Shown: positions 10,597 to 24,634 of the stretch, in pieces
Layout: every line of letters starts with the position of its first letter
Position numbering within the stretch: position 1 is the first letter of the stretch
Assembly: GCA_963840855.1 (NCBI GenBank)
Contig: CAWJBB010000073.1
Coordinates: 1-60,817, forward strand
Direction of reading: 5' to 3'
Source of the DNA: an uncultured delta proteobacterium
Lineage (GTDB): Bacteria > Desulfobacterota > Binatia > UBA9968
DNA length: 60,817 nucleotides
Position numbers and translations under genes: made by a program
The notes under the pieces: model-generated
Told to the model about the DNA's origin: nothing
The model's database searches: none
What the model saw: the letters and a program-made list of their open reading frames with translations, nothing else

Positions 10597-11070
10597 ATGA
10601 AGGGGAGCGTAGAAGTCATTAAAGTGCTGAACGAGGTGCTGCGTAAAGAGCTCACCGGGATCAATCAATATTTTATCCACTCGAAAATGTGCAAGAACTG
10701 GGGCTATGAAGTGCTGGCCGGAGTGCACTGGAAAGAATCCATCGACGAAATGAAACACGCCGATCTGCTGACCGAACGGATACTCTTTCTCGAAGGTGTT
10801 CCCAATATCACCGCTTACGACAAGATTTTGGTTGGCTCGACAGTGAGGCAACAGCTGGAGAACGATATGGGTCTGGAACAAGCGGCCCTGACGGTTCTCA
10901 GACCTGGAATAAAAACCTGCCTCGACGCCCAAGACGACGCAACCCGAGAACTGCTTGAACATATCGTGGTCGACGAGGAGCACCATATCGACTGGATTGA
11001 ATCCCAGCTGCATCAAATCCAGGAAGTGGGGCTGCAGAACTATCTCGCTCAGCAGATTTTCAAGAAATGA
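10597..11070 (+). CDS. bfr: Bacterioferritin
   Basis: ELTGINQYFIH, ESIDEMKHAD, ERILFLEG, DEEHHIDW. Confidence 0.97.
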   Translation: MKGSVEVIKVLNEVLRKELTGINQYFIHSKMCKNWGYEVLAGVHWKESIDEMKHADLLTERILFLEGVPNITAYDKILVGSTVRQQLENDMGLEQAALTVLRPGIKTCLDAQDDATRELLEHIVVDEEHHIDWIESQLHQIQEVGLQNYLAQQIFKK

Positions 11071-11311: not shown

Positions 11312-13141
11312 TTATGCCAACGCGGAAAAGTTTTGTTCCCGCCGCAAGTTCGCGAGCACGCCTTCGATCCAGCGGCTGGCAGGGTCATCATAATCGACGT
11401 CGCAATCGACGCGCGGATAAAGACGCACGGCGCCGTGGCGCTCTAGGGCGGCGTCAAGCTCGCGGCCGCATTTGCAAAAGTGATCGTAAGTGGTGTTGCC
11501 GAGCGCCAGCACGGAATATTTCACGCCGCGGAGATCCAGGCTGTTACCGTGAACGACCGCGTCCCAGAACGGCGCGGCGTCGTCAGGCGGTTCGCCGTCG
11601 CCATAGGTGCTCGCCACGACCAGCACGCAGTTCGTTTGCTTGAGCACGTTCGGTTGACAGTGCGCCATGTCTCGGACCCGCGCGGTGAGACCGGTTGGGA
11701 GCAGCGCCTCGGCCAGTTTTTTAGCCAGCGCCTCCGAGTTGCCGGTCACGGTGCCGTAAAGAATCAACACCGACTCGCCATTGAACGGCGCCGCGGCTCG
11801 CTCGCGCGCGAGATCCTGAACGGCGTGGGCGTGTCCGTTGGCACCGTTGGGATCGATGGTTTGCCCTTCGCTCAAGGCGCGCGCCCGCGCCGCGTCGACG
11901 GTCCGGGGCTCGGGCTGGTGTTGGTTCGGTAAATCGAGTTGATCGGTATTCGTATTCATCAATGACTCCTCAGCAGTAAATTCTTCCGATGTACGGCCCC
12001 AGGAGCGAAAGCGGCGCCAGGCCATCGCCACGCCGGTCCAGACGAGAAAACAGCCGCCGAGAGAAGCGAGCCCGGCAACGGTCTGGCCGGGGAAGCCGAA
12101 CGCTTCGCCGGTGTGCAGCGCGCGTACCCAGGTGCGCAGTTTTCGCCCCGTGCTGTTGTTGGCATAAGGCTCCCACTTGACGACGTCGCCGGTGGCGCGA
12201 TTGAGCGTGAGCTGCGAGCGCTGGAAGGGATGGAAGGCATCGGGTCCTTGTATCGATGCAGTTACCGGCCCGTCGCCGCGCGGCGGCAAGCGCAGCATGA
12301 TCATCACCCAACCGGGCGCTTGCTCTTGCGCCCGCGCCAATAGAACATCGAAGCTCGCCATCGGCGCGGCGGCGCGGGCTTCGCCGCGTTGGCCGCGGCC
12401 GCTCGTTCCCTGACCGCCGGCGCCGGCGGGTCCCTCGGCCCGGCGCGGCGGCTCGCTGCCGGTCAGGGTGTAGAGCAGATCGTTAGCCCAGGGATAAGAC
12501 ATGACCGCGGCGGTCAGCGTAAGCACGACGAGCACGGTTGAAGACCAAAAACCGATGACGTTGTGCCAGTTCCAATCGCGCGCCTTGCCGCGCAAGCGGG
12601 GGTTGAACAGGAAGCTATGCTTCAGCGCGCGCCAATGCCAGCTGGGCGGCCACCAGAGATAAAATCCAGTAACTGCGAGCCAGAAAAACGCCAGGTTGCA
12701 GGCGCCGGTGATCGCGCGCGCTGTATCGCGGCCTTCGCCTTCGGCGCCGAGCCAGCGGTGCCAATCCACGACATTGCGCAAGAAGCTATAAGTGGCCGAA
12801 AGTCCACCCAAGAGCTGTCCAGTATAGGGATTGACGAAGACGGTATTTTCACGGCTGAGGTTGACCGCCACCGACGCCGCGGGATCGGACTTGACGATGA
12901 TCGCCGCGGGGCGCGCTTCCGGGATAGCGTTTCGGACTTTCGCGATCAGTTCGTCATAACTCAAGCGCTTGCCGTCCGGAGGCGGAGTCACCCGGCGCGC
13001 GTCGCGCTCGATGTACTCGGTGATCTGACGCTCGTACATGAGGATCACGCCGGTAAACGACATGATGAAGATCACCAAACCGGCAACGAGCCCGGCGAGC
13101 AGGTGGCTCCAAAAAATTATTTTGTGCAGCATTTTCATCAT
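11312..13141 (-). CDS. PepSY-associated TM iron-regulated membrane protein fused to a C-terminal flavodoxin domain
   Basis: FWSHL, WHRWL, WHNVIG and LHTG His-bearing helices; C-terminal YGTVTGNSE, STYGDGEPPDDA, LGNTTYDHFC (CysJ-like flavodoxin). Confidence 0.85.
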   Translation of the reverse strand: MMKMLHKIIFWSHLLAGLVAGLVIFIMSFTGVILMYERQITEYIERDARRVTPPPDGKRLSYDELIAKVRNAIPEARPAAIIVKSDPAASVAVNLSRENTVFVNPYTGQLLGGLSATYSFLRNVVDWHRWLGAEGEGRDTARAITGACNLAFFWLAVTGFYLWWPPSWHWRALKHSFLFNPRLRGKARDWNWHNVIGFWSSTVLVVLTLTAAVMSYPWANDLLYTLTGSEPPRRAEGPAGAGGQGTSGRGQRGEARAAAPMASFDVLLARAQEQAPGWVMIMLRLPPRGDGPVTASIQGPDAFHPFQRSQLTLNRATGDVVKWEPYANNSTGRKLRTWVRALHTGEAFGFPGQTVAGLASLGGCFLVWTGVAMAWRRFRSWGRTSEEFTAEESLMNTNTDQLDLPNQHQPEPRTVDAARARALSEGQTIDPNGANGHAHAVQDLARERAAAPFNGESVLILYGTVTGNSEALAKKLAEALLPTGLTARVRDMAHCQPNVLKQTNCVLVVASTYGDGEPPDDAAPFWDAVVHGNSLDLRGVKYSVLALGNTTYDHFCKCGRELDAALERHGAVRLYPRVDCDVDYDDPASRWIEGVLANLRREQNFSALA

Positions 13142-13160
13142 CGCTTCTCTCCGTCTAAGC

Positions 13161-13706
13161 CTAACCTATGGTGCGGCTCTTTAGATCGCTAAACTCGGCG
13201 CGCAACCAGTCGCGCAGCAGATCCTTCTCGTAGCGTAGGGGGTCCTCCCTCGGGTAAACGCTGCGCATTTGATAGTCGATATCGGTGAGGTCGCGCTTGC
13301 CCGTCTTGACGACTTTTGCTGTGCTATCGAGGACTTCGAACTCAAGCACGATGTGCGGCGGGTAGAGATCTTTGACAATGCGTAGCTGATCGGCTTGCGG
13401 ACCGCGATGAAACAGCTCGAAATCGCCGGCCAGGTCGATGTTCGTCACCCGGATACTTAGCCGCATGTCCGCGGGCACGTAGCGCGCACCGGTCTCGATC
13501 AGAAAGTTTTCTAATTCGCGGAGGATTCCCGAAGACGTCGGGTCCAGTTCGGCCCGATGCGCGTCGGTGAATTTCTCCGGCTCGATGAAAGCGACGGAAA
13601 CGCGCGAGACCGATTCGTCCACCGGTGCCGCTGCGGCGCAGCCGGCAAGCAGCAGAAGGGCCATCGCGCAGCCTTTCTCTAACCGTCGACGAACAAGAGC
13701 GTTCAT
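13161..13706 (-). CDS. DUF3016-like lipoprotein
   Basis: LLAGC lipobox; PEKFTD, VTNIDLAGDFE, LRYEK.LL.DW. Confidence 0.75.
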   Translation of the reverse strand: MNALVRRRLEKGCAMALLLLAGCAAAAPVDESVSRVSVAFIEPEKFTDAHRAELDPTSSGILRELENFLIETGARYVPADMRLSIRVTNIDLAGDFELFHRGPQADQLRIVKDLYPPHIVLEFEVLDSTAKVVKTGKRDLTDIDYQMRSVYPREDPLRYEKDLLRDWLRAEFSDLKSRTIG

Positions 13707-13707
13707 G

Positions 13708-14388
13708 TCACACCTCTGCGAAGCGCCGCAGCAAGTTGTGATAGCAGTTGGTCAATTCCACCACGGCGCTATTATTGGGTATCACTTGATTGACCTTGTT
13801 GATTGCCATGTCGAGATCGAAAAGTAGGGTTCGAGTGCCGTCGTCGCGCACCATGCTCTGCACCCAGAAGAACGACGCGAGGCGGACGCCGCGCGTGACC
13901 GGTTTGACGTGGTGCAGGCTGCTTGCCGGATAAACCACCATGTCGCCGGCGCCGAGCTTCACCGCGTGGGTGCCGTAAACGTCGTCGATCATCAGCTCGC
14001 CGCCGTCGTAGTCTTCCGGCGCGCTTAGAAACAACGTCGCGGATATATCCGTGCGCACGCGCAGCGGCGTGCCGGGAATCTGCCGGATGGAATTGTCCAG
14101 ATGCGCGCCGAAGGACTCGCCGCCTTCATAGCGGTTGAAGAGCGGCGGGAAGACCCGGAGCGGCAATGTCGCCGTGATGAACAGCGGGTTGCGCTCCAGG
14201 GCCGCCACGATCATATCGCCTAGCTCCCGCGCCTCCGGGCTATGTTCCGGTAATTGGCGGTTGTCCTTCACCATGGCCGATTGATGTCCGGCGGTGACCC
14301 GGCCGTCGATCCAGCTCGCGCGGTTCATCACTTCGCGGCAGCGCGCGATCTGTTCGGGGTTCAAGACATTAGGAACTTGGACGATCAC
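13708..14388 (-). CDS. piuC: PKHD-type Fe(II)/2OG dioxygenase PiuC/YbiX
   Basis: [44 protein letters not shown]. Confidence 0.93.
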
Positions 14389-14402
14389 TATTGTAGGACT
14401 CC

Positions 14403-16569
14403 TTAGAACCTGAAGCTTGTAGCGAGAATAAATGTTCGCCCAGCGCCGGGGATCACGTGAGAAGGATGCACGCCCTCAAAGTAGTATGCATTCGCCAGGT
14501 TTTGTGCGTTGAAACGAAGCGAAATGTTATTCGTCGCCTGATACGCGATCGTTGAATCCCAACGCACGTAACCGTCGACTTTGTTAGTATTCTGGTTGTT
14601 GGCATACCTGCCGCCGACGTAGCTGGGACCGCCACCGATCTGCCATTTCTCAAAAAAATCGTAAGTTGCCCATAAGGTCGCGCTATGTTTAGGGACGTTT
14701 TGCGGGACTTTTCCATCAATTGTAACGTCGTTGGACTTGGTAATCTCGGCGTCGATGAACGTATAGCCGCCGAAAACGTTTAAGCCAGGCAAGACGCGCC
14801 CTGCGACCCCAAACTCAAAACCTTGAGATCGTTGTTTGCCATCGAGCACCTGAACTGTGCCAGTTATCGCGTCGGGAGTTCGAGCGTTGGTCTTCTCGAT
14901 GTGGAACAATGCGCTGGTCAGATTCAAAGCGCCGCCGAAAAAATCCAACTTGCCGCCGATCTCGAAAATCTGATTTTTTTCCGGTGGGGTATTCTGGTTG
15001 TTGGCTGCCAGCGCGATAGCTTCTGCCGATGGGTTGAAGGAAGTGCCGTAAGAAAAGTAATAGCTCTGCCAAGCCAGCGGCTTGAAAACTAGCCCACCGC
15101 GGTAGCTGGGCATTCTGTCTATGTTGTTGAAATCTTGAGAGACAGGTCTTTTGTCATCAAAATGGGTACTGAAATAATCCCAGCGCGCGCCACCGATAAT
15201 ATCTAAATAGTCGTTCAGTTTTAGGGTGTCCGCGGCATAGATGCCGAAGCCAGTTGATCCCGTAAAGGAATCAGCCGCTAAAGTCTGGCTCACCAAGGAT
15301 AGATTGGCCCCATGAGTCGGGTCGGAAGAGGTTAGTCGCAGGAAGTCCGTTGGCCGCGGTTGTTTGAGAAAAACGAAGCACGTCGACCGTTTCACGGGAG
15401 AGTTCTATGCCTGTGGTCAGAGAGTGCTTCAGACCGAAGGTGTCGAATTTTGCGGTCAGGTCAGTTTGGTTATGACGATCATCTCCTTGGTGTCGCGTAT
15501 GGGCCTGCTGCGATTAATCGTGGTTGTACCGACCAATGAGGGCACGGTGGGAGCCACTTCGCGATGAACGTGGCTGAAGCGAAGAGTATTGCGCAAGCTC
15601 AATTGATCGTTGAAGCGATGGTCTATTTTCCCAGTGACGATATTCGCGAAGGTATCCTCATAGTCTTTTTTGAGACCGTAAAAATTTTCTCGATTGACAC
15701 GAACCGGATCGCCGCCGGAAAATGGCAGGCCATAATCCGGAATGTTGTTCTCGTACTGAGTGAAATAGCTCAAGGTCGCCTGCGTGGGAGTGCCGAGGCC
15801 GAAGGAGATCGACGGCGCGAAGCCGAAGCGCTCATTCTCGACGACGTCGCGCTCGGCGATATCGTTGCGGTGCGCCATGAAATTTACGCGCAATGCGGCG
15901 TTGGGCAGTACCGCTGTTAAAGGCTGGTTGACGTCGGCCGTGCTGCGCAGATAAAAATCGGTGCCGCTGCTAAAAATGCCGCCGTAGGAGGGATCGAGGC
16001 GGGGAATCTTGCTGACCTGGTTAATGACGCCGCCGGTGGAGCCACGACCGAAATAGACCGAGGACGGACCCTTCAGTACTTCAACGGCTTCGAGATTAAA
16101 CGAATCACGGAAGTAGGTTCCCTGATCGCGCACACCGTCGATGTACATATCGTTGCGAGCGTTGAAGCCGCGCAAGGTAAAACTGTCGCCCTGAGCGCCG
16201 CCGCCCTCGCCGGCTGCTACGCCGATACCTGTGACGTTGCGTAGAGCGTCGCGCAAGGTAGATCCCGCCTGTTCTTCGATGAGTTTCTGCGGCACGATGG
16301 TGATCGATTGCGGCGTGTCTTTGAGCGGCTCGGGAAACTTGGGCAGCGACGACTGGGGCACAATGTACGGGCTATTTTGATCTTGGACCACCACCGGCGG
16401 CAGGGCTAATGGGTTCCTCTTTTTTCGGTTCCGCCGCGAAAGCGTTGCTCGCCAGCGCAAAGCTAAAAGCCACCGCTTTGCCAACTCCTTCGCCCGCAGC
16501 CAGACAAATTTTTTGCAAAGCCGTCTTGTTCCGTCGTCTTTCGTTCGCGCGTTTCTGTTGTCGACTCAT
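14403..16569 (-). CDS. TonB-dependent siderophore receptor (Fiu/PiuA-like), split by frameshifts
   Basis: Signal peptide in frame 16372..16785 (MSRQQ...AFAA); plug DTPQSIT...RGF...EVLKGPSS in 15456..16484; barrel end SYGTSFNPS...GAGRTF...F in 14403..15395. Confidence 0.85.
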
Positions 16570-16649
16570 GTGTTCCTCCAATGAAGTAGATGTTTTCGCT
16601 TGCTGGCATGAGTCGGGCTCACGCACTGGCTGGCTAGGTGAGTATGAAT

Positions 16650-16848
16650 CTATTTCGTCAGAATGAGCTTTCCCTTTCTTGTGATGCGCAGGTTGTATTC
16701 CTTGGCTCTGATGCACAATGACGATCTCACTGTTGCCTTGAAATAGCCGATTGCTTTCGATACGCGGTTTTTTCCCGGCTGACAATGGCCGTCGTTCGCG
16801 ATGTTCCCGGCTGTTTGCCCGCGCAATTCACAAGCATATTTCTCTCAT
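16650..16848 (-). CDS. hemP: Hemin uptake protein HemP/HmuP (frameshifted)
   Basis: RIESNRLFQGNSEIVIVH, then after a shift near 16700 EYNLRITRKGKLILTK-stop; ATG at 16848 after GGAG. The start region is also disrupted. Confidence 0.75.
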
Positions 16849-16856
16849 GGTTGCTC

Positions 16857-17677
16857 CTAGCGAAGCTCGAATTTCACCGGCAACATGACCCACACCGCGA
16901 CCGGATTTTGCCCCTGGCGCGCCGGTTCGAAAAGCCACTTTTTTACGGCGTCGACCGCGGAGAGATCGAGATCGCGAAATCCGGCGGACTGCTCGACGAT
17001 CACGTCGCCGACCCGGCCGCTCTCGAGCACGCGGACGCGCAAAGAGTGACGCCTTGTACACCGGCTCTTCTCGCGGACTCGGGATAACGAGGCTTGATTT
17101 GATAGCCGCCGAGGGGCCGGGCGAGGCCCGAAAGCGCTTCACCGAGCCACACCGCCGCCGTGCCGTCGCCCTTGGCCCCTCGGCCGAGACCTGACGTTCC
17201 CTGCCCGCCACCGCCGCCTTCCACGCCGCTGCCGGCAACGACTCCGACGTCGCCTTTGCCAAAGAGATTGCCGGCTCCGGCGGCGCTGCCTTCCGCTTCG
17301 CTGGCCCGGCTGCCGACGTTCCAGCCGGCTTTGGTTGCGCCGGTGTTATCCGGCAATGAGGCAAGCGGTTCCTCGATCGGTTTCTCTTTGATATCTTCCT
17401 TGGTGTTGCCGGTCGGCGGTAGCGGAGTGGTTTCCAATACCGGTTTGGATAATAACTTCGGCGCGGTGATAGTTTGCGGTTTAGGTTTGGGTGCCGGTGG
17501 TGGTGGCTGGACTTCGACTTTGTTCGGTTGCTCAACGCTGGGAACATCGAGGAGCTCGATGGGCACCGTGACAGGCTTGAGCGGCTTTGCATGCAATATC
17601 AACGCGGCCACGGGAACCAGGCTCAGATGGATCAACGATGATGCAGTAAATGACGAGATCAGCCAGCGATCGTTCAT
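16857..17677 (-). CDS. tonB: Energy transducer TonB (frameshift near 17042)
   Basis: TM helix with S..IH, Pro/Gly-rich linker, YPESARRAGVQG, then LD.SA.DAVKKWLFEPA...PVKFEL in the next frame. Confidence 0.85.
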
Positions 17678-18090
17678 TTTTTCTGCTCCTTCGGTTTTAC
17701 GGCAATGGCCATCTTGGCCACATTGGCGCCCCGGGCGATGTCCATGACTTCCACCACCTGGCCGTGCTGAACGCCGTCGTCGGCGTTGATGACGACCAGG
17801 AGATCGGGATTTTTCGCGAGCTGTTGCTTCAAGGATTCACCGAGCACCGATTTATCGATTGCCTGCCGGTTGAGAAATAACCGTCCCTCTCTGTCGATGG
17901 TGATCGCGGCGCTCTCGGCGGGCGCTTGTTGGCCGGACGCTGCCTTGGGCAGATTGACCGGCATGCCTTTGAATTGGGACATGGATAGGGTCGAGATCAT
18001 GAAAAAGACCAGCAGGAAAAAGATCGTGTCGATCATCGGGATGATCTCGATGCGCGCTTTCTTCATGCTTCTGCGTTGAATGCGCATCAA
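17674..18090 (-). CDS. exbD: Biopolymer transporter ExbD
   Basis: IIPMIDTIFFLLVFFM, VNLPKA, INADD.V.HG.VV.VMD. Confidence 0.92.
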   Translation of the reverse strand: MMRIQRRSMKKARIEIIPMIDTIFFLLVFFMISTLSMSQFKGMPVNLPKAASGQQAPAESAAITIDREGRLFLNRQAIDKSVLGESLKQQLAKNPDLLVVINADDGVQHGQVVEVMDIARGANVAKMAIAVKPKEQKK

Positions 18091-18695
18091 TGTTTCCCCG
18101 CGTGTTCGTGCAGCAGCAGCTCCAGCGATGAGCTGAAGTGCTCCATCTGGTCCAATTCCCGCTCTACTCGGGCCGTGAAATAGTTGTAGGAGACCAGGGT
18201 TAGAATTGCGATCAGCAATCCGGTAGCGGTGGCGATGAGCGCTTCGGCAACGCCGCCGGTAACGGCGTGCGGTTGTCCAAGGCCCGCTTCGGACATGACG
18301 TCGAAGGAACCAATCATGCCTACCACCGTGCCGAGCAATCCGAGCAGAGGGGCAAGAGTAACGATGGTGTCGAGAACACCGATGCGGCTTTTGAGCACCG
18401 GGATCTCGGCCTGAGCGGCGGCTTCCATCGCCTTTGCCGGCGCGGGATTGCGGTGTGCCAGTCCAGCCGCTAGGACGCGCCCAATCGGCTGTCCGGATGA
18501 TTTTCCTAATTTTAGCGCCTGTTCGAATTCGCCATTTTCAACTAGTGTTAGAATTTGACTGAGCACCTCTTTGGATTTCAGTTTGGTCCAAAACATGATC
18601 CGCTCGATGGTCAGCGCCAGCGAGATCAAGGAGCAAGCGAGCAGCGGGATCATCACAATCCCGCCTTTGACGATGATGGCAACGACCTCTACCAT
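18087..18695 (-). CDS. exbB: MotA/TolQ/ExbB proton channel
   Basis: APLLGLLGTVVGMI, GVAEALIATATGL. Confidence 0.92.
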   Translation of the reverse strand: MVEVVAIIVKGGIVMIPLLACSLISLALTIERIMFWTKLKSKEVLSQILTLVENGEFEQALKLGKSSGQPIGRVLAAGLAHRNPAPAKAMEAAAQAEIPVLKSRIGVLDTIVTLAPLLGLLGTVVGMIGSFDVMSEAGLGQPHAVTGGVAEALIATATGLLIAILTLVSYNYFTARVERELDQMEHFSSSLELLLHEHAGKH

Positions 18696-18697
18696 GA

Positions 18698-18910
18698 CTA
18701 CTGAACCAAACCTTTCTTGCGCTCTGAGAGATCTTGCCGCTCCGGTTGCTCGATACCTTCCGCCACGCTTTGCATCGCAAGCCCAAGCTCGCGCAAATCT
18801 TCAAGCGAAATATGCAGAACAACATTGCCGTAATGAACGTGGGCGGTATCTTGACTGCAGTTGCACAGAGAAACGGACCATCTGCGTTGGCGCGATTTGA
18901 TTTCGTACAT
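18698..18910 (-). CDS. Small hypothetical protein with CxC and HxH motif
   Basis: MYEIK...LCNCSQDTAHVHYG; GGAGG RBS; stop 2 nt before exbB. Confidence 0.65.
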   Translation of the reverse strand: MYEIKSRQRRWSVSLCNCSQDTAHVHYGNVVLHISLEDLRELGLAMQSVAEGIEQPERQDLSERKKGLVQ

Positions 18911-18922
18911 TTTGACCTCCGC

Positions 18923-18973
18923 AAAAAATAAAAAGCCCGGAGCTCCGCCCATGAGGGCGGAACGCCGGGCTCT
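18923..18973 (-). terminator. Intrinsic terminator inside the 5' leader of the exbBD-tonB operon
   Basis: Minus strand AGAGCCCGG-cgt-TCCGCCC-tcat-GGGCGGA-gct-CCGGGCT then TTTTATTTTTT, about 12 nt before the ATG. Confidence 0.8.
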
Positions 18974-19004
18974 GGATTCTAGATCGCTGGCCGCTATTTA
19001 TGTT

Positions 19005-19033
19005 CGTATATGTAAATAAATTAAGTTTGTCAA
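19005..19033 (-). promoter_or_regulatory. Sigma-70-type promoter
   Basis: TTGACA-17 nt-TATACG on the minus strand in an AT-rich gap. Confidence 0.65.
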
Positions 19034-19092
19034 TACGAAGAATAAATATTAGTGACCATGAATTATTGTGTTAGAGAAAAAAATCTCAATGA

Positions 19093-19320
19093 TCATAGTT
19101 TTGTCTTCGGGATACTTAAGGTTGCGCCCTTGTATTCAGCTACCCGCTGCCGCTCAGCCGTGAAGGGAATGACTACCTGTCGCTTACACCTGCGGCATTT
19201 CAACTCCACGCCATCGTTTACCAGCCGGGCCAGCAAGCTGCCACAGCAACAGCGCAGGGAGGTATTGTCCTTAGACGCTGAAGCGGGTTCGCGGTCCCTG
19301 TGCGGTTCCCGGCCGCGCAT
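19093..19320 (-). CDS. Mu Com-like zinc-ribbon protein
   Basis: LRCCCGSLLARL...VELKCRRCKRQV matches the Com pattern RC..C.KLL...IEI.CPRCK; AAGGAG RBS; ATG abuts the FTR1 stop. Confidence 0.7.
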   Translation of the reverse strand: MRGREPHRDREPASASKDNTSLRCCCGSLLARLVNDGVELKCRRCKRQVVIPFTAERQRVAEYKGATLSIPKTKL

Positions 19321-21355
19321 CTACGTCTCCTTCCGCCCCTCGCGCGCCATCCAAAGCGAGGTTGTGATGAACACGCAGAGTAGAGTCCCTTGGGCAGCCA
19401 GTGTTTCCATCGTGGGATAGATGCCGAGCAGTGGCAGCTGCCGGAGGAAAATTGAGCGGCGTCGCCGGAACCCAGCCGGCCGCCTGCAACTGATTGATGC
19501 CGGTACCGGCAAAAATGAAGGCCATAATGTAGAGCAGGGTCCCGGTGACCCCGAAGAAATACTTTAGCGGCATGCGCAGGCCAAGCTTGAAGATCGCAAA
19601 GGTAGCCGCGAGCAAAGCGACTACGCCTGCGGCGAAACCGCCAATGATGCCCTGATGATTGCTTTCGTTTTGCAGCCAGAGCGCTTGATAGAAAAGCACG
19701 ACCTCGAAGGCTTCCCGATAGACGGCGAAGAAGGAGATACTCACAAGTCCGATAATTCTCTTGCTGGAAAGAACGTTTTGGACTTTGTCTTGGATAAACG
19801 CTTGCCATCGCTTGGCCTCGGTCCGCGTGTGCAGCCAATAGCCGACATAGAAAAGCGCCACAGCGGTGAAAATAGAGATGAAGCCTTCCATGCTTTCGCG
19901 GTGCTGGCCGCTGAAAGTGAGCACCGTTTGAGCGGCAAGCCAGGTGAGGACGCCGGCGAACAAGGCGAGGATCCAGCCGAAATGGATGTAACGAATCGCG
20001 TCTTTCGCTCCCATCATTTTCAGCATGGCGATGATAGCCGCGAGAATCAGCGCCGCCTCGAGGCCCTCGCGTAGAATGATCAGCGCTGAATTCAAGAACG
20101 CGTAATAACCCGAGAAATCATCGCTGCCGGCCAGCGTCTGCGCCGCCTGGTCCAGCTTGGCTTCGATGGCGGCGCGTTGTTTTTGAATCTCCTCGGCGGC
20201 AATTCCCTGGCGGATCGAATTGCGAAATTGGGTGAACTCGGCTTCGAGAGACCGTCCTAGCGCCGCATCCTTGGCGAACAGCGCCGGCTCGGCCATCTCC
20301 AAGCCGTCGAGGTAGGCCTCGATCGCTTTCTGGTAGGCCTTTTCCTTTTCGCCCTTGCCGTAAAGCTCTGACGCTTCAGCGAGCAGGCTGCGGGCGATCA
20401 CCAACGGGTCGGCGGGCTTCTTCTCTAAAAGCCCGCGCCGCAGATACGCGAGTACATCATTGCGCTGGGCTTCCTGATCGAAACTGGCTTTGAGCTTTTC
20501 TTGCAGCTGATCATCGGAATGGGTCGCTAACGTTGCCACGGAGGTTAGCTCCGGCGCTATTTTCTTTCGCTGAATCAGAGCTTCGCCGGATGCGGCCGCT
20601 TCCGGCGAGAAGCGCAGCGACATGACGTAAAAGGCGACTTGCCAACGTTGCTCGTCCGACAAGGCGGCGAAGGAAGCCATGGCCGTATTGTCGATGCCGA
20701 ACGTGGCGGTGTTATAGCCCTTGAACGGCGACAGGCCGGCCATGAATTCAGCGTCGGTAAAATTGGCCGGCGGCGGCGTCTTCGGATTCATCGACTCGCG
20801 GCCGGGTCCGTCTCCCCTGCCGCTTTCGCCGTGGCACTGGACGCAATTTTCAAGATACAGTTTCCGCCCATCCGCCAAAGATGGGAGCTGGCGGGGATGA
20901 GGGATGATCTTGTAGACGGCGATCAGTTTTTCCTTGGCATCGGTGGCGAGTGCCGCCACGGTTTTTACGTCGCCCTTTTTCTCCACTTGACTGACGAGGG
21001 ATTTGAGGATCGGTTCGACTGCGGCTTTGTCAGTCTTCTCGAGCGCTTTGAGTTGTTGGATGAGCTCCAGGATACGCTTCGAAAACTCCTGCATCTCGGC
21101 ATATTCGTCCTGGTTGACGATCTTGCCGTCCTGAACCGCGTTCTGGTAATCGCCGCCCAAGTAGTCCAAAAGGGCGACCAGGCGTCGGGCCTGATCTTGA
21201 GCGAAGACGGAATGCGCCATGCTCAAGACCGTCAAAATGGTCAGTAAATATTGGATGCAATGTCGGCGGAATTTACCAGAAAACTCGCCGGAGCGCGTTG
21301 ACGGTCTAAGCACGGGAGAACAGGACCAGTTTGCTTTATGCTCTGGAGTTTTCAT
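19321..21355 (-). CDS. Cytochrome c / FTR1 family iron permease (PbrT-like), frameshift near 19440
   Basis: LLDYLGGDY, CVQCH heme motif, REGLE and REAFE motifs; real C-terminus LGIYPTMETLAAQ in frame 19321..19512. Confidence 0.9.
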
Positions 21356-21358
21356 AGA

Positions 21359-22126
21359 TCACGAAGCTTGGGCGGAAAGAAGAAAATGCTTTCTGAGCCA
21401 CGCACTAAGGCCATCCATCGCGAGAACGACCACCAGCACCAACAGTAAAACCGTTGCCAACCGACGATAATCGAGACTTTGCAGATAGATCTGGATCACG
21501 AAGCCCAGGCCGCCGGCGCCGACAAACCCGAGTATCGACGAGGCGCGGATATTGTACTCGAGCATGAAGAGCACCTGAGCCAGGACCGCGTTGGCTGCTT
21601 CCGGAATGATCACAAAGCGCACCAGTTGGAGTTTGGACGCGCCGGTGCTTTTTACGGCCTCGAGGATTTCCGGGTCGGTTCCTTCAAACAAATCAGCATA
21701 GATTTTGGCTAGATACCCGACGGTGTAGGCGGCGATCCCGAATGTCCCGGCGAGGGGTCCAAGACCGACGAGAATAACGAAAATAATGGCCCAGAGGAGC
21801 ACCGGAATGGTGCGAATGCTAGCGGCGACGAAGCGCGCGAAGCCCGACAGCCAGGGTGAGAATAAACGTCTGGTGCCGAGAATGCTCAAGGGGAACGATG
21901 CCAGGAATCCCAGGAGCGTGCCCGCGAATGACATTTCCACCGTTTCCCAAAGCGCGGCGCCGGCGGTGGGAAGGATTCCTATGTCGGGCGGAATCAAATC
22001 CCGCCCAAGGATGCCCAAGTTGCGAAAACCGCGCGTGAGCCGTTCCCAGTCGAAAAATCCTAGGTGGCCGAGTACCGCGAGCAGGAAAAGCGCGGTGGCG
22101 ATGGGCAAAAGCAGCGTCGATTTCAC
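21359..22126 (-). CDS. PhnE/PtxC-like ABC permease
   Basis: RTIP.LLWAIIFV..VGLGP.AG, EA..STGA, EYNIRAS.ILGFVGAGGLG. Confidence 0.88.
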   Translation of the reverse strand: MKSTLLLPIATALFLLAVLGHLGFFDWERLTRGFRNLGILGRDLIPPDIGILPTAGAALWETVEMSFAGTLLGFLASFPLSILGTRRLFSPWLSGFARFVAASIRTIPVLLWAIIFVILVGLGPLAGTFGIAAYTVGYLAKIYADLFEGTDPEILEAVKSTGASKLQLVRFVIIPEAANAVLAQVLFMLEYNIRASSILGFVGAGGLGFVIQIYLQSLDYRRLATVLLLVLVVVLAMDGLSAWLRKHFLLSAQAS

Positions 22127-22872
22127 GGGGTCGGGTCGATTTGTTCAGTTTCGAGTATCTCGTTGCCAATGAATCCGCGCACGATTTCGGCGTTTTGCAG
22201 AGCGAGAACTTCGTCGCCGAATTGGCGCGCCAGGCCGAATCGGTGCATGCTCATGATAAAAGTGATGTTTTCTTTTTCCGCGGCGCGCCGGATGCGGGCG
22301 AGAATCTCGGATGCCAGAGCGAGATCCAAGTCCGAGGCGAATTCATCAGCAACCACCACGCGGGGATGCTGGAGTAGAGTACGCGCGATAGCGACCCGCT
22401 GGCGCTCGCCGCCGCTCATGTGAAAGACCAGTTCGGAACTCTTGTGAGCGATGCCCATCATGTCGAGGGCCGCCTGCGCTTTTTCGATTTCATCGCGCGG
22501 AAAAAGGCCCAGGAGGGCCTGGCCGTCACCGATCCGGCCCAACGCGCCCATCAAAACGTTATCGAGGGCGGATAAGTTGCGCACCAAACCCAATTGCTGG
22601 GGAATATAACCGATGAGCGAACTCAAGCGACGCCGGTCGAGCTCTTGCGTGGGCTGGCCGAAAACGCTCACCCGCCCTTCGTTGGATTTGAGTATTCCGG
22701 CCAGTATCCGCAACAGTGTCGTCTTTCCCGTTCCGGAGGGCCCCATGATGACGGTATGTTTTCCCGCCGGAATCGACAGCGAAATATCTCGCAGCACCCA
22801 GTTGTGGTTGCGATAAGCAAACCAGACTTGGTCCGCTTGCATAGCGTACGGCGCTTTGCCGTTATGCGTCAC
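22123..22872 (-). CDS. PhnC-like ABC ATPase
   Basis: GPSGTGKTT, NVLMGALG, MSGGERQRVAIAR. Confidence 0.88.
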   Translation of the reverse strand: MTHNGKAPYAMQADQVWFAYRNHNWVLRDISLSIPAGKHTVIMGPSGTGKTTLLRILAGILKSNEGRVSVFGQPTQELDRRRLSSLIGYIPQQLGLVRNLSALDNVLMGALGRIGDGQALLGLFPRDEIEKAQAALDMMGIAHKSSELVFHMSGGERQRVAIARTLLQHPRVVVADEFASDLDLALASEILARIRRAAEKENITFIMSMHRFGLARQFGDEVLALQNAEIVRGFIGNEILETEQIDPTP

Positions 22873-23819
22873 AGGCGCTCCGTGTACTTCAGATTGGCGA
22901 GTTTGAGAAACTTTTGCAGCGAGCCGAGGTGCTCGCTCGCCGTGGTCGGCTTAAAGCCGACGAAGATGCTGGAAATGAAAGTGCGCATGAGGTCGCGATG
23001 CTCGGGCGCTCCCAATTTCGTCACAGTCTGGATCACGCGGCCGCGCAGCGGGTCTTTCAATTCTTTGCTCAGCACTACGGCATGCGAGGGAATCGGCCCC
23101 TGCTGTTCAACGGTGCGAGTGCCAGCGAGGACTTCATTATAAAGTTTCTCGGGCACATCGCCGGCGATCACAGTCGTGTCCACTTGGCCTTGCTTGAGGG
23201 CTTGCCAGCACTGGCCGTAACCGCCGCCGAACAAAACTTCCTTGAAGTAGGCCTTGGGATCGGCTTCTTTGCCTTCGCCGGGCTGCAATAGATTCATTTC
23301 GACCATCCGGCCGATGGGCGCGACAAAACCGGATGTAGAGATCGGGCTGGGAAAGCACGCGCTCTTGCCCTTCAACGACTGCAAGTCCTTGTACGGCGAG
23401 TCCGGCAGCACAATCCAATATGAGTAATAATACGGAGCATCGACCTTTTCTTTACCGTGCAAAACCTGGCGGATCTCTGCCAGCGCGACTTCCGCGCCAC
23501 CCAGCCTAACGGCCAGCTGAGCGGGCCAAGCGGACATAAACGCCACGTGGGCATGGCCGAATCGTAATGACTCGACAACCGCCGCGTAACTGCTCGGCAC
23601 GTAAATTTCGACTTTGGTTTTACCGCCCAGGCCTTTTTCAAGGAACTGCTGCAGCGGCTTTGCCTTGTTGAGCATCTCGTCGCTGGCGACCGTCGGCTGA
23701 ATCGCGATGACGAGCTTGCCCTGGCCCCATGCGGAAGCTAGAGGAGCCATGATGAAAAGCAGGCTCATCAATAGACCTCCGGTGAGGGATAGTGGTAGGA
23801 TTCGATCGTTAGTATTCAT
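22869..23819 (-). CDS. PhnD/PtxB-like substrate-binding protein
   Basis: YAAVVESLRFG, YYSYW, SPISTSGF..P; N-terminal signal. Confidence 0.85.
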   Translation of the reverse strand: MNTNDRILPLSLTGGLLMSLLFIMAPLASAWGQGKLVIAIQPTVASDEMLNKAKPLQQFLEKGLGGKTKVEIYVPSSYAAVVESLRFGHAHVAFMSAWPAQLAVRLGGAEVALAEIRQVLHGKEKVDAPYYYSYWIVLPDSPYKDLQSLKGKSACFPSPISTSGFVAPIGRMVEMNLLQPGEGKEADPKAYFKEVLFGGGYGQCWQALKQGQVDTTVIAGDVPEKLYNEVLAGTRTVEQQGPIPSHAVVLSKELKDPLRGRVIQTVTKLGAPEHRDLMRTFISSIFVGFKPTTASEHLGSLQKFLKLANLKYTERL

Positions 23820-23950: not shown

Positions 23951-24634
23951 ATGTCGATTGTCAAGCCCATGCGCAATGCCAAAATATCCCCCGCCACGGA
24001 GGATTACCTGCGGACAATTTATGCCCTGGAGGAGGAGATCCAGCCGGTCATCGCCGCGCGGGTCGCCGACGAAATGGGCGTGTCCGCCTCGACGATGGTC
24101 AGCACGCTGCGCCGCCTGGAGAGGGAGGGCTATCTCAAGGTCGAGCACCGCAAGGAGATTCGGTTAACGGCTGCAGGAAATAGCGTCGCGGAGCGAATTC
24201 TCAGGCGTCATTTCTTGATCGAGCGGTTTTTGACCGACATGCTCGGCCTGGACTGGGTGAAAGCGCACCAGGAAGCCCATCGTCTGGAGCACGCCGTTTC
24301 CCAAGAGGTGGAGGAGCGGCTGGCGAAGTTGCTGCACCACCCGTCGACATGCCCGCACGGCAATCCGATCCCAGGGGCCGGCGTATCGAAGTCGGCCAAG
24401 TCGATGCCGTTGCATCAAGTCCCGGAAGGCAAGGAAGTTGAGCTTGAATATATAACCGAAGGGGGCGAGCGCGACGCCCGCTTGCTGGGCTATCTACAGG
24501 ACCACAAACTCGTCCCCGGGGCAAAGCTTCAAGTGGTGGATGTGGCGCCCTCGCTGGGGATGATGACGTTGGCGGTGGGCCAGAAGCAATTTTCTCTGGG
24601 CATCGAGGCCGCGAAAAAAATCCGCGTCCACTAA
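23951..24634 (+). CDS. DtxR/IdeR/MntR-family metal-dependent regulator with FeoA domain
   Basis: EDYL..IY, RRH.LIERFL, EAHRLEH, CPHGNPIP, SH3-like C-terminus. Confidence 0.93.
   Translation: MSIVKPMRNAKISPATEDYLRTIYALEEEIQPVIAARVADEMGVSASTMVSTLRRLEREGYLKVEHRKEIRLTAAGNSVAERILRRHFLIERFLTDMLGLDWVKAHQEAHRLEHAVSQEVEERLAKLLHHPSTCPHGNPIPGAGVSKSAKSMPLHQVPEGKEVELEYITEGGERDARLLGYLQDHKLVPGAKLQVVDVAPSLGMMTLAVGQKQFSLGIEAAKKIRVH

Follow-up and report, generated by a model that had tools for sequence, protein, structure and literature searches.

The control of iron uptake in bacteria is attributed mainly to Fur/DtxR-type repressors, small RNAs (sRNAs) and extracytoplasmic function (ECF) sigma factors. Switches located in leader RNAs include the protein-dependent antiterminators, among them BglG/LicT with the ribonucleic antiterminator (RAT), the ANTAR proteins (AmiR, NasR and EutV) and HutP, as well as metal riboswitches such as czcD/NiCo and the Mn2+ element yybP-ykoY. 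An intrinsic terminator, in turn, requires a stem that reaches the U-tract. For a Com zinc finger, a published in vitro selection (SELEX) describes two GAG(N)2CC elements placed symmetrically about a 3-4-nt stem, as well as a CC(N)2-3GAG sequence that is recognised within a hairpin (PMC6483171). There, Com binding is thought to melt a neighbouring inhibitory structure of mom (PMC6483171). Here, we describe a stretch of 60,817 nt from an uncultured delta proteobacterium of the Binatia (UBA9968; assembly GCA_963840855.1, contig CAWJBB010000073.1), hereafter the window, in which the gene of a Com-like zinc-ribbon protein is followed by a promoter, a conserved RNA hairpin and a terminator in front of an exbBD-tonB operon. 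Judged from the sequence, protein-dependent antitermination by the Com-like protein acting on the leader hairpin has, in our estimation, a slightly better than even chance of being correct. The pair points to an iron-acquisition switch of soil bacteria that would be a variant of Com-type RNA-binding zinc fingers and of protein-dependent antitermination that is apparently undescribed; a literature search, outside whose reach most subscription journals lay, returned no description of such a Com-like protein–RNA pair, which is not proof of novelty. The central features are as follows:

19093..19320, minus strand: gene of the 75-aa Com-like zinc-ribbon protein, assigned from the homologue alignment and profile comparison with Com.
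19005..19033, minus strand: sigma-70-type promoter TTGACA-17-TATACG, with a predicted start at ~18997-18999.
18968..18992, minus strand: conserved RNA hairpin GGC CAGC GAU cuaga AUC CAGA GCC with a symmetric 4x4 internal loop, found as a covariance model match.
18923..18973, minus strand: intrinsic terminator, with its stem at 18973-18932 and a U-tract to 18923.
18698..18920, minus strand: Shine-Dalgarno (SD) sequence GGAGG (18920-18916) and open reading frame (ORF) of 70 aa (RWSVSLCNCSQDTAHVHYGNVVLHI; ORF 18698..18910), the first gene after the leader.

The promoter was read from the sequence as TTGACA at 19033-19028, a 17-nt spacer and TATACG at 19010-19005; it was not reported by a simple promoter scan, whose -10 rule demands T at position 6. 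The ensuing leader starts at ~18998 and spans ~88 nt. Within it, the terminator hairpin at 18973-18932 comprises an 18-bp stem (9+9 with one mismatch) and a UCAU loop, followed by UUUUUAUUUUUU to 18923, which provides the G+C-rich hairpin directly before a U-tract that defines an intrinsic terminator, although the automated terminator scan missed it. The minimum free energy of the terminator fold was -48.9 kcal/mol vs -29.2 +/- 3.5 for 200 shuffles (z -5.6), none of which was as good. The SD sequence GGAGG at 18920-18916 precedes the ATG at 18910, and the terminator ends 13 nt before this ATG, a space too short for a promoter. A first-pass annotation of the window had proposed the four-Cys ORF with RCCCGSLLA...ELKCRRCKR at the end of the FTR1 operon, the promoter, the hairpin with its U-tract and the impossibility of a promoter after the terminator, all of which were confirmed. 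It had further taken the ATG behind the leader as the first of the exbBD-tonB operon; the operon is present, but this ATG opens the 70-aa ORF and not exbB. What that annotation overlooked was the key feature, a conserved hairpin of 25 nt on the 5' side of the terminator that is repeated at several iron genes within a genome.

This hairpin would compete with the terminator, as the 3' end of the motif, AGAGCC (18973-18968), provides the first pairs of the terminator stem. Such an overlap between a putatively protein-bound hairpin and the 5' strand of a terminator is expected of an antitermination leader. In the proposed mechanism, the leader of the orf70-exbB-exbD-tonB-receptor operon would start with the 25-nt hairpin a few bases past the promoter. 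By default, this hairpin would be too weak to compete, and transcription would stop 13 nt before the first ATG; we take termination as the default state because folding of the isolated motif hairpin yields -2.4 to -4.4 kcal/mol vs -48.3 kcal/mol for the terminator-containing fold. If the Com-like protein held the hairpin, the lowest terminator pairs could not form beside the U-tract, and RNA polymerase would read into the iron-uptake genes. As the stabilising factor, the protein suggests itself, whose gene is adjacent to the motif and co-occurs with it. Being the last gene of the FTR1 iron-permease operon, it would establish a feed-forward relay between iron-uptake transcription units, and the exbBD-tonB operon would need initiation plus antitermination. 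In relatives, further copies of the leader would gate cupredoxin, porin, DUF6662, HemP-like and ferritin genes. We infer binding of the RNA by the protein and the direction of control, namely antitermination, from sequence features, and we likewise infer whatever metal dependence the switch may have.

The protein has 148 homologues at E<=0.01, most of ~63 aa, with the near-invariant core (L)RCxCGSLLARLVxxGVELKCRRCKRxVxxP; some of them carry the name 'phage FluMu protein Com' in one source. In an alignment of 30 sequences, residues R23, C24, C26, G27, S28, L29, L30, A31 and R32, as well as K41, C42, R43, R44 and C45, were invariant, with the four Cys in two putative knuckles, C24 and C26 (CxC) plus C42 and C45 (CRRC). 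Comparison of the family alignment with Mu Com by hhalign gave a probability of 93.3% and an E of 2.7e-7 over 35 columns, with a one-residue gap that arises because the first knuckle is CxC and not CxxC as in Mu Com. Consistently, PHROG 13819, 'gpCom control of modification', matched 29/30 members (best E 1.4e-4) and PHROG 6417, 'translational regulator', matched 24/30. Scans of the 75-aa protein with Pfam and NCBIfam gave no match, and Mu Com itself scores 36.8 bits against Pfam Zn_ribbon_Com, a profile that leaves the window protein unmatched. The AlphaFold2 (AF2) model, of mean predicted local distance difference test (pLDDT) score 63, shows a core of three strands at residues 29-52, with a pLDDT of ~80, between disordered tails. 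A Foldseek search of this model against the Protein Data Bank (PDB) returned nothing at E<=0.001, and the weak rows were assorted zinc domains. Ribosomal uS14, the best PDB profile match of the protein, was discarded at an E of only 0.17. Among the labelled neighbours, namely the genes of FTR1, an ABC transporter, ExbBD-TonB and a receptor, there is no mom-like gene, and the surroundings are not those of a phage or prophage that carries a modification gene of the mom type. The likeness to Com put forward in the first-pass annotation thus stands as remote homology in the hhalign and PHROG comparisons and fails at the Pfam threshold and in the spacing of the first knuckle: we regard the 75-aa protein as Com-like, a remote chromosomal relative of Mu Com that is not a member by Pfam criteria.

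As in Mu, a small protein whose four conserved Cys would make up two knuckles, the second of them basic (KCRRCKR), is encoded immediately upstream of the putatively regulated gene, with a candidate RNA site between the two and binding that is proposed to disfavour an inhibitory downstream structure. In the candidate hairpin, a 3-bp stem is flanked on either side by CC(N)1-2GAG elements, comparable with those selected by SELEX for Com (PMC6483171). Specifically, CCCAGAG is found in the 3' half and GCCAGAG or GCCAGCG in the 5' half; the resemblance of CCCAGAG/GCCAGMG to the Com motif is a lead only. Unlike Mu Com, the protein is chromosomal and linked to iron uptake rather than to a phage and DNA modification, and it would have several target sites per genome. 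Unlike in mom mRNA, the inhibitory structure in the family is an intrinsic terminator and not a stem that sequesters the start codon. The locus shares with BglG/LicT-RAT, ANTAR and HutP systems a weak hairpin that overlaps the 5' strand of a strong terminator, a proposed need for a protein and default termination; it differs from them by the lack of CAT/PRD, ANTAR and HutP domains in Pfam scans, an RNA unrelated to Rfam families and the iron theme.

In relatives, the region 3' of the Com-like gene is highly conserved and reads AG(A/C)GGCCAG(A/C)G(G/A)U-loop-A(C/U)CCAGAGCCCGG, followed by a variable hairpin, CCGGGCU, a U-tract, an SD sequence and an ATG. The motif consensus is 5'-GGC CNGM GRY [3-9 nt] RYC CNGM GCC-3', with two 3-bp helices separated by a symmetric 4x4 internal loop. 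A covariance model, R1, was built from the relatives' leaders; in the window's genome it has a single copy, at 18968-18992, with 76.6 bits. A weak R1 match elsewhere in that genome lies at G000:C21:149424-149504 (E 0.23). The pattern used for collecting motifs fixed the outer helix and the loops and left the inner triplets free. Among matches adjoining Com-like genes, these triplets paired 3/3 in 54/62, and in the background provided by the window's own 7.1-Mb genome they did so in 8/257 pattern matches. The pattern scan of this genome revealed no convincing second copy, the full look being found only at 18992. Across 87 distinct sequences, one pair of the inner helix was GC in 58, GU in 14, AU in 13 and CG in 1, and the next was UA in 61, CG in 14, UG in 6 and GC in 1. 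In total, the inner helix shows 29 double-sided changes, and its observed score was reached by 0/500 shuffles. Outside the family, the inner helix becomes GGC:GCC or GAC:GUC. A small stem proposed by RNAalifold (GGCC/GGUC) does not stay intact in the window or L004 and gave way to the covarying GRY:RYC helix.

Some copies depart from the compact form. L128, L140:3820-3958 and L143:1274-1404 have a long foldable insertion in the motif loop or after it, with R1 matches of 131-139 nt. Sorangium sp. So ce513 (L162, C1:5421463-5421487) has a good copy, GGC CCGC GAC uugac GUC CAGC GCC, which lies ~11 kb from the Com-like gene and behind an AT-rich palindrome, ACTGAT...ATCAGT, although the genome is GC-rich elsewhere.

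The covariation bears on whether the element acts as DNA or as RNA. Two CCAGAG-like direct repeats could be bound as DNA by the zinc-ribbon protein, which would act as a roadblock or repressor, and the half-sites GGCCAGAGG and CCCAGAGCC do lie just downstream of the promoter. However, the changes seen in the inner helix leave RNA pairing intact, and they include 14+6 G-U pairs that would be mismatches on DNA or the other strand; the orientation always agrees with that of the downstream gene; and most copies have no nearby promoter. In 80 diverse loci, R1 matches were on the strand of the Com-like gene in 54/54. Because of the G-U pairs in the inner helix and this constant orientation, the sequences point to an element that acts as RNA rather than as a DNA site, and we hold a DNA operator to be extremely improbable.

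The homologue survey, which the first-pass annotation had proposed as a test of linkage to iron-uptake operons, did tie the protein to a conserved leader RNA that overlaps a strong terminator before iron-uptake genes. In 73/98 distinct gene ends, the motif was found 3' of the Com-like stop, with a median distance of 33 nt and 52/73 within 57 nt; in 59/80 loci of diverse species, it was on the same strand within -30..+500 nt of the gene. At E<=0.01, R1, the covariance model of the leaders that had likewise been suggested, identified copies in 59/90 family genomes. According to a hand tally of these 90, both partners are present in 51, the protein only in 3, the RNA only in 8 and neither in 28, counts that are not independent evidence because protein and RNA are adjacent and the genomes are kin. 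Three of the 51 (G015, G063 and G080) are unpublished genomes, on which alone no conclusion rests; G015 supplies locus L013, which was used among the relatives' loci and as 2 of the 87 motif rows. The protein-only genomes are G011, where it is degenerate, G089, where the motif is degenerate (21 bits), and G108. The RNA-only hits are weak in 7/8 (E 1.7e-4 to 7e-3), the other being in G109. Neither protein nor RNA was found in the sister families f2 (0/5 genomes) and f3 (0/19). In all, Com-like relatives are encoded in ~334 species genomes, which cover Binatia, Myxococcota (Sorangium, Haliangium and the cultured Myxococcus xanthus AM003), Candidatus Manganitrophus (Nitrospirota) and Methylomirabilota/Rokubacteria.

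This linkage also bears on a riboswitch, in which the 25-nt hairpin would itself bind a small ligand or metal (Fe2+, haem or similar) and control the terminator, while the Com-like protein would be otherwise employed, for example as an FTR1 accessory. The anatomy is that of a cis-regulatory RNA, namely a conserved element with a predicted structure, a variable terminator, a close SD sequence and ATG, and copies before related genes, and the element matches no known RNA family: Rfam scans that covered the window region and seven related loci gave no match at the motif and only a tRNA elsewhere. Like metal riboswitches, these are cis-acting leaders with terminators before metal-homeostasis genes; unlike them, they have no Rfam match, a far smaller conserved core and strict linkage to a protein gene. 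We consider a riboswitch unlikely, given a conserved part of only ~25 nt, whose two 3-bp helices contribute -2.4 to -4.4 kcal/mol, the near-strict co-occurrence and adjacency with one small protein gene, and the remote relationship of that protein to an RNA-binding zinc finger whose selected motif resembles the element.

A terminator overlaps the motif in 46/49 distinct family motifs (median dG -25.1), and one follows 57/87 distinct motifs overall. From the element to the next start codon, the median distance is 15.5 nt, with 45/62 cases at <=30 nt. A TTGACA-17-TATAnn promoter is kept in 12/87 distinct motif instances, i.e. the window plus 11 others, and ends 9-12 nt before the motif. Many family genomes have 2-4 copies of the element, clustered within ~10 kb in iron loci, and the genes behind them encode orf70/ExbB, Cupredoxin_1, Porin_O_P-like, DUF6662, DUF4198, hemP-like and Ferritin products. 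Across the 80 diverse loci, the first labelled downstream gene belonged to these iron classes in 52, was unlabelled in 25 and was replaced by the contig end in 3. In G024, the order is Com-like gene, first element (E1), orf70, second element (E2) and porin gene. In G090, it is FTR1, a first Com-like gene (Com1), E1, cupredoxin, E2, a second Com-like gene (Com2), E3, orf70-exbBD-tonB-...-DUF4198, E4 and ferritin. At this locus (L056, G090:C4:214000-231000), the second of the two Com-like genes is thus behind its own RNA element, and E4 before the ferritin gene has a poor U-tract; the arrangement suggests that Com2 may be autoregulated. In M. xanthus (locus L134), the Com-like gene and the motif are followed by a haem-uptake operon, TonB-dependent receptor-HmuY-HemS/ChuX.

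These positions allow two further explanations to be weighed. The element could be an ordinary terminator or a processing or stability element that ends the FTR1/Com-like transcript, with the 5' sequence as an RNase or stability signal and leaky readthrough downstream. The terminators are indeed strong, and in 52/73 cases the motif starts <=57 nt from the Com-like stop, where a 3' end is expected. We nevertheless find this distinctly unlikely, as the conserved promoter fires into the motif in 12 distinct instances, that of the window among them, copies exist away from the Com-like gene and before other iron genes, the motif is retained in lineages without a recognisable terminator, and a promoter cannot fit before a start codon at a median of 15.5 nt downstream. 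The second explanation, which we rate as highly improbable, is that promoter, ~75-nt RNA and terminator together constitute the gene of a trans-acting iron-regulated sRNA, in some cases derived from a 3' untranslated region (3' UTR), possibly with the Com-like protein as its partner. The succession of a promoter, ~75 nt and a strong terminator in the window would suit such a gene, as would a conserved 5' part with a variable terminator stem, which is typical of sRNAs, but the element occurs in several copies per genome, 9-30 nt before a same-strand start codon in 45/62.

Several observations weigh against antitermination by a Com-like protein. On the protein side, the Pfam Zn_ribbon_Com (PF10122) cutoff was reached by 0/30 members, with 1/30 at E 0.095; the first knuckle is CxC rather than CxxC; and a tblastn search with the 75-aa protein of 50,697 phage records found no phage Com, only chance matches at E 2-3. 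On the RNA side, the outer helix, which was imposed by the search pattern, never varies so as to test pairing. The co-occurrence counts are subject to the kinship and adjacency given above, and two genomes uncouple the partners: G108 has kept protein and promoter and lost the motif, and G109 has kept the motif with a protein gene that looks decayed. As to the terminator, 26/38 distinct motifs from outside the family have none that is recognisable, and in L098/L135 a U-rich run, UUUUGUGAUU, directly follows the motif hairpin, so that the protein could promote termination there. Finally, ferritin genes also carry the motif, which is odd for a pure iron-starvation activator. For the terminator-less lineages, sequestration of the SD sequence by the 3' half of the motif was considered and rejected, as duplex energies were no better than those of shuffled sequences (1/22 at p<=0.05, median 0.54).

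In a more far-reaching version of the antitermination model, which appears quite unlikely to us, the Com-like protein would do the iron sensing itself and represent a new and widespread class of metal-responsive ribo-regulators. Its rubredoxin-like Cys4 site (CxC...CxxC) would take up Fe(II) or Zn(II), depending on supply, and the hairpin would be held or not, such that terminators, or other inhibitory structures in high-GC lineages, would be overridden before the iron/haem regulon. The first-pass annotation had suggested antitermination by a possibly Fe/Zn-sensitive protein within a DtxR -> Com-like -> TonB cascade; the link to DtxR is one of gene neighbourhood, in the window and also in L015. 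The pattern TTAGT-N2-8-ACTAA had 0 matches in the window, and neither a DtxR nor a Fur operator came to light there. Just upstream of the conserved -35 box, AT-rich inverted repeats TTAGT...ACTAA are found in L038, L043, L049, L068, L089, L090 and L119, and they may be a metalloregulator operator.

The remaining genes of the iron cluster in the window are:

23951..24634, plus strand: DtxR-family metalloregulator gene (Pfam Fe_dep_repr_C 4.9e-30, Fe_dep_repress 4.3e-16, FeoA 4.1e-13), divergent from the ABC/FTR1 operon.
21359..23819, minus strand: genes of a phosphonate-binding-type substrate-binding protein, an ABC ATPase and a permease (Pfam PF12974 1.1e-38, ABC_tran 3.2e-32, BPD_transp_1 4e-18), upstream of FTR1.
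19321..21355, minus strand: cytochrome c-FTR1 fusion gene (Pfam FTR1 3.3e-25, Cytochrom_C 1.6e-13).
11312..18695, minus strand: exbB, exbD, tonB, hemP-like, TonB-dependent receptor (split), PiuC-type hydroxylase, DUF3016 and PepSY_TM-flavodoxin genes, assigned with Pfam.

The gene order from exbB to PepSY_TM-flavodoxin recurs in G090, there too behind the RNA element. Near the end of the iron cluster, a ferritin-like gene of the bacterioferritin type is found at 10597-11070 on the plus strand. The 70-aa ORF has no Pfam or NCBIfam match. Its family (RWSVSLCNCSQDTAHFHYGNVVLHI) is conserved in many loci, usually as the first gene after the element and before exbB, and is fused to the N-terminus of ExbB in L010:565-1368; in the ESM Atlas it forms an unnamed cluster of 216 members, mostly from Binatota. 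The conserved Cys and His of the family suggest metal binding.

The boundary between FTR1 and the Com-like gene had to be redrawn. The FTR1 ORF as listed (19271..21355) overruns, as relatives align only to residue ~638, and the conserved C-terminus (...LPLLGIYPTMETLAAQG..., like that of relatives) is read in another frame, whose stop codon is TAG 19321-19323, which indicates an apparent frameshift between 19321 and ~19450. The ATG of the Com-like gene (19320) directly abuts this stop codon, and such a stop-start abutment (TAAATG or TAGATG) is also present in 4/5 of the first relatives' loci (L003-L006). Within 5 kb on the minus strand (window 14403-19512), four genes look frameshifted or split. 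Among these, tonB lacks a TonB_C match and its end is garbled, the hemP-like ORF covers only profile positions 1-21 of 37, and the TonB-dependent receptor falls into two ORFs, one with the Plug (15456..16484) and one with the barrel (14403..15395). The breaks are probably assembly indel errors rather than gene decay. The metagenome-assembled genome (MAG) of a relative (L058) has similar gene breaks. Of nine public sequencing runs compared with the window, all available as contigs, none contained more than 0.21 of the sampled words; the four that were aligned contributed short stretches from relatives, with neither transcript ends nor levels, and are silent on transcription.

If the antitermination model is correct, a zinc-ribbon RNA-binding protein and a dedicated leader hairpin would add a regulatory layer to iron uptake, the phage Com fold would have a cellular function, and the RNA motif, which is absent from Rfam, would be new. 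A hairpin of 25 nt and a protein of ~60 aa could also serve as an orthogonal expression switch. As the pair is present in cultured Myxococcus xanthus, it is open to direct genetics and biochemistry. Should the iron-sensor version also hold, the pair would represent a protein–RNA counterpart of Fur/DtxR in Binatia, Myxococcota, Nitrospirota (Manganitrophus) and Methylomirabilota.

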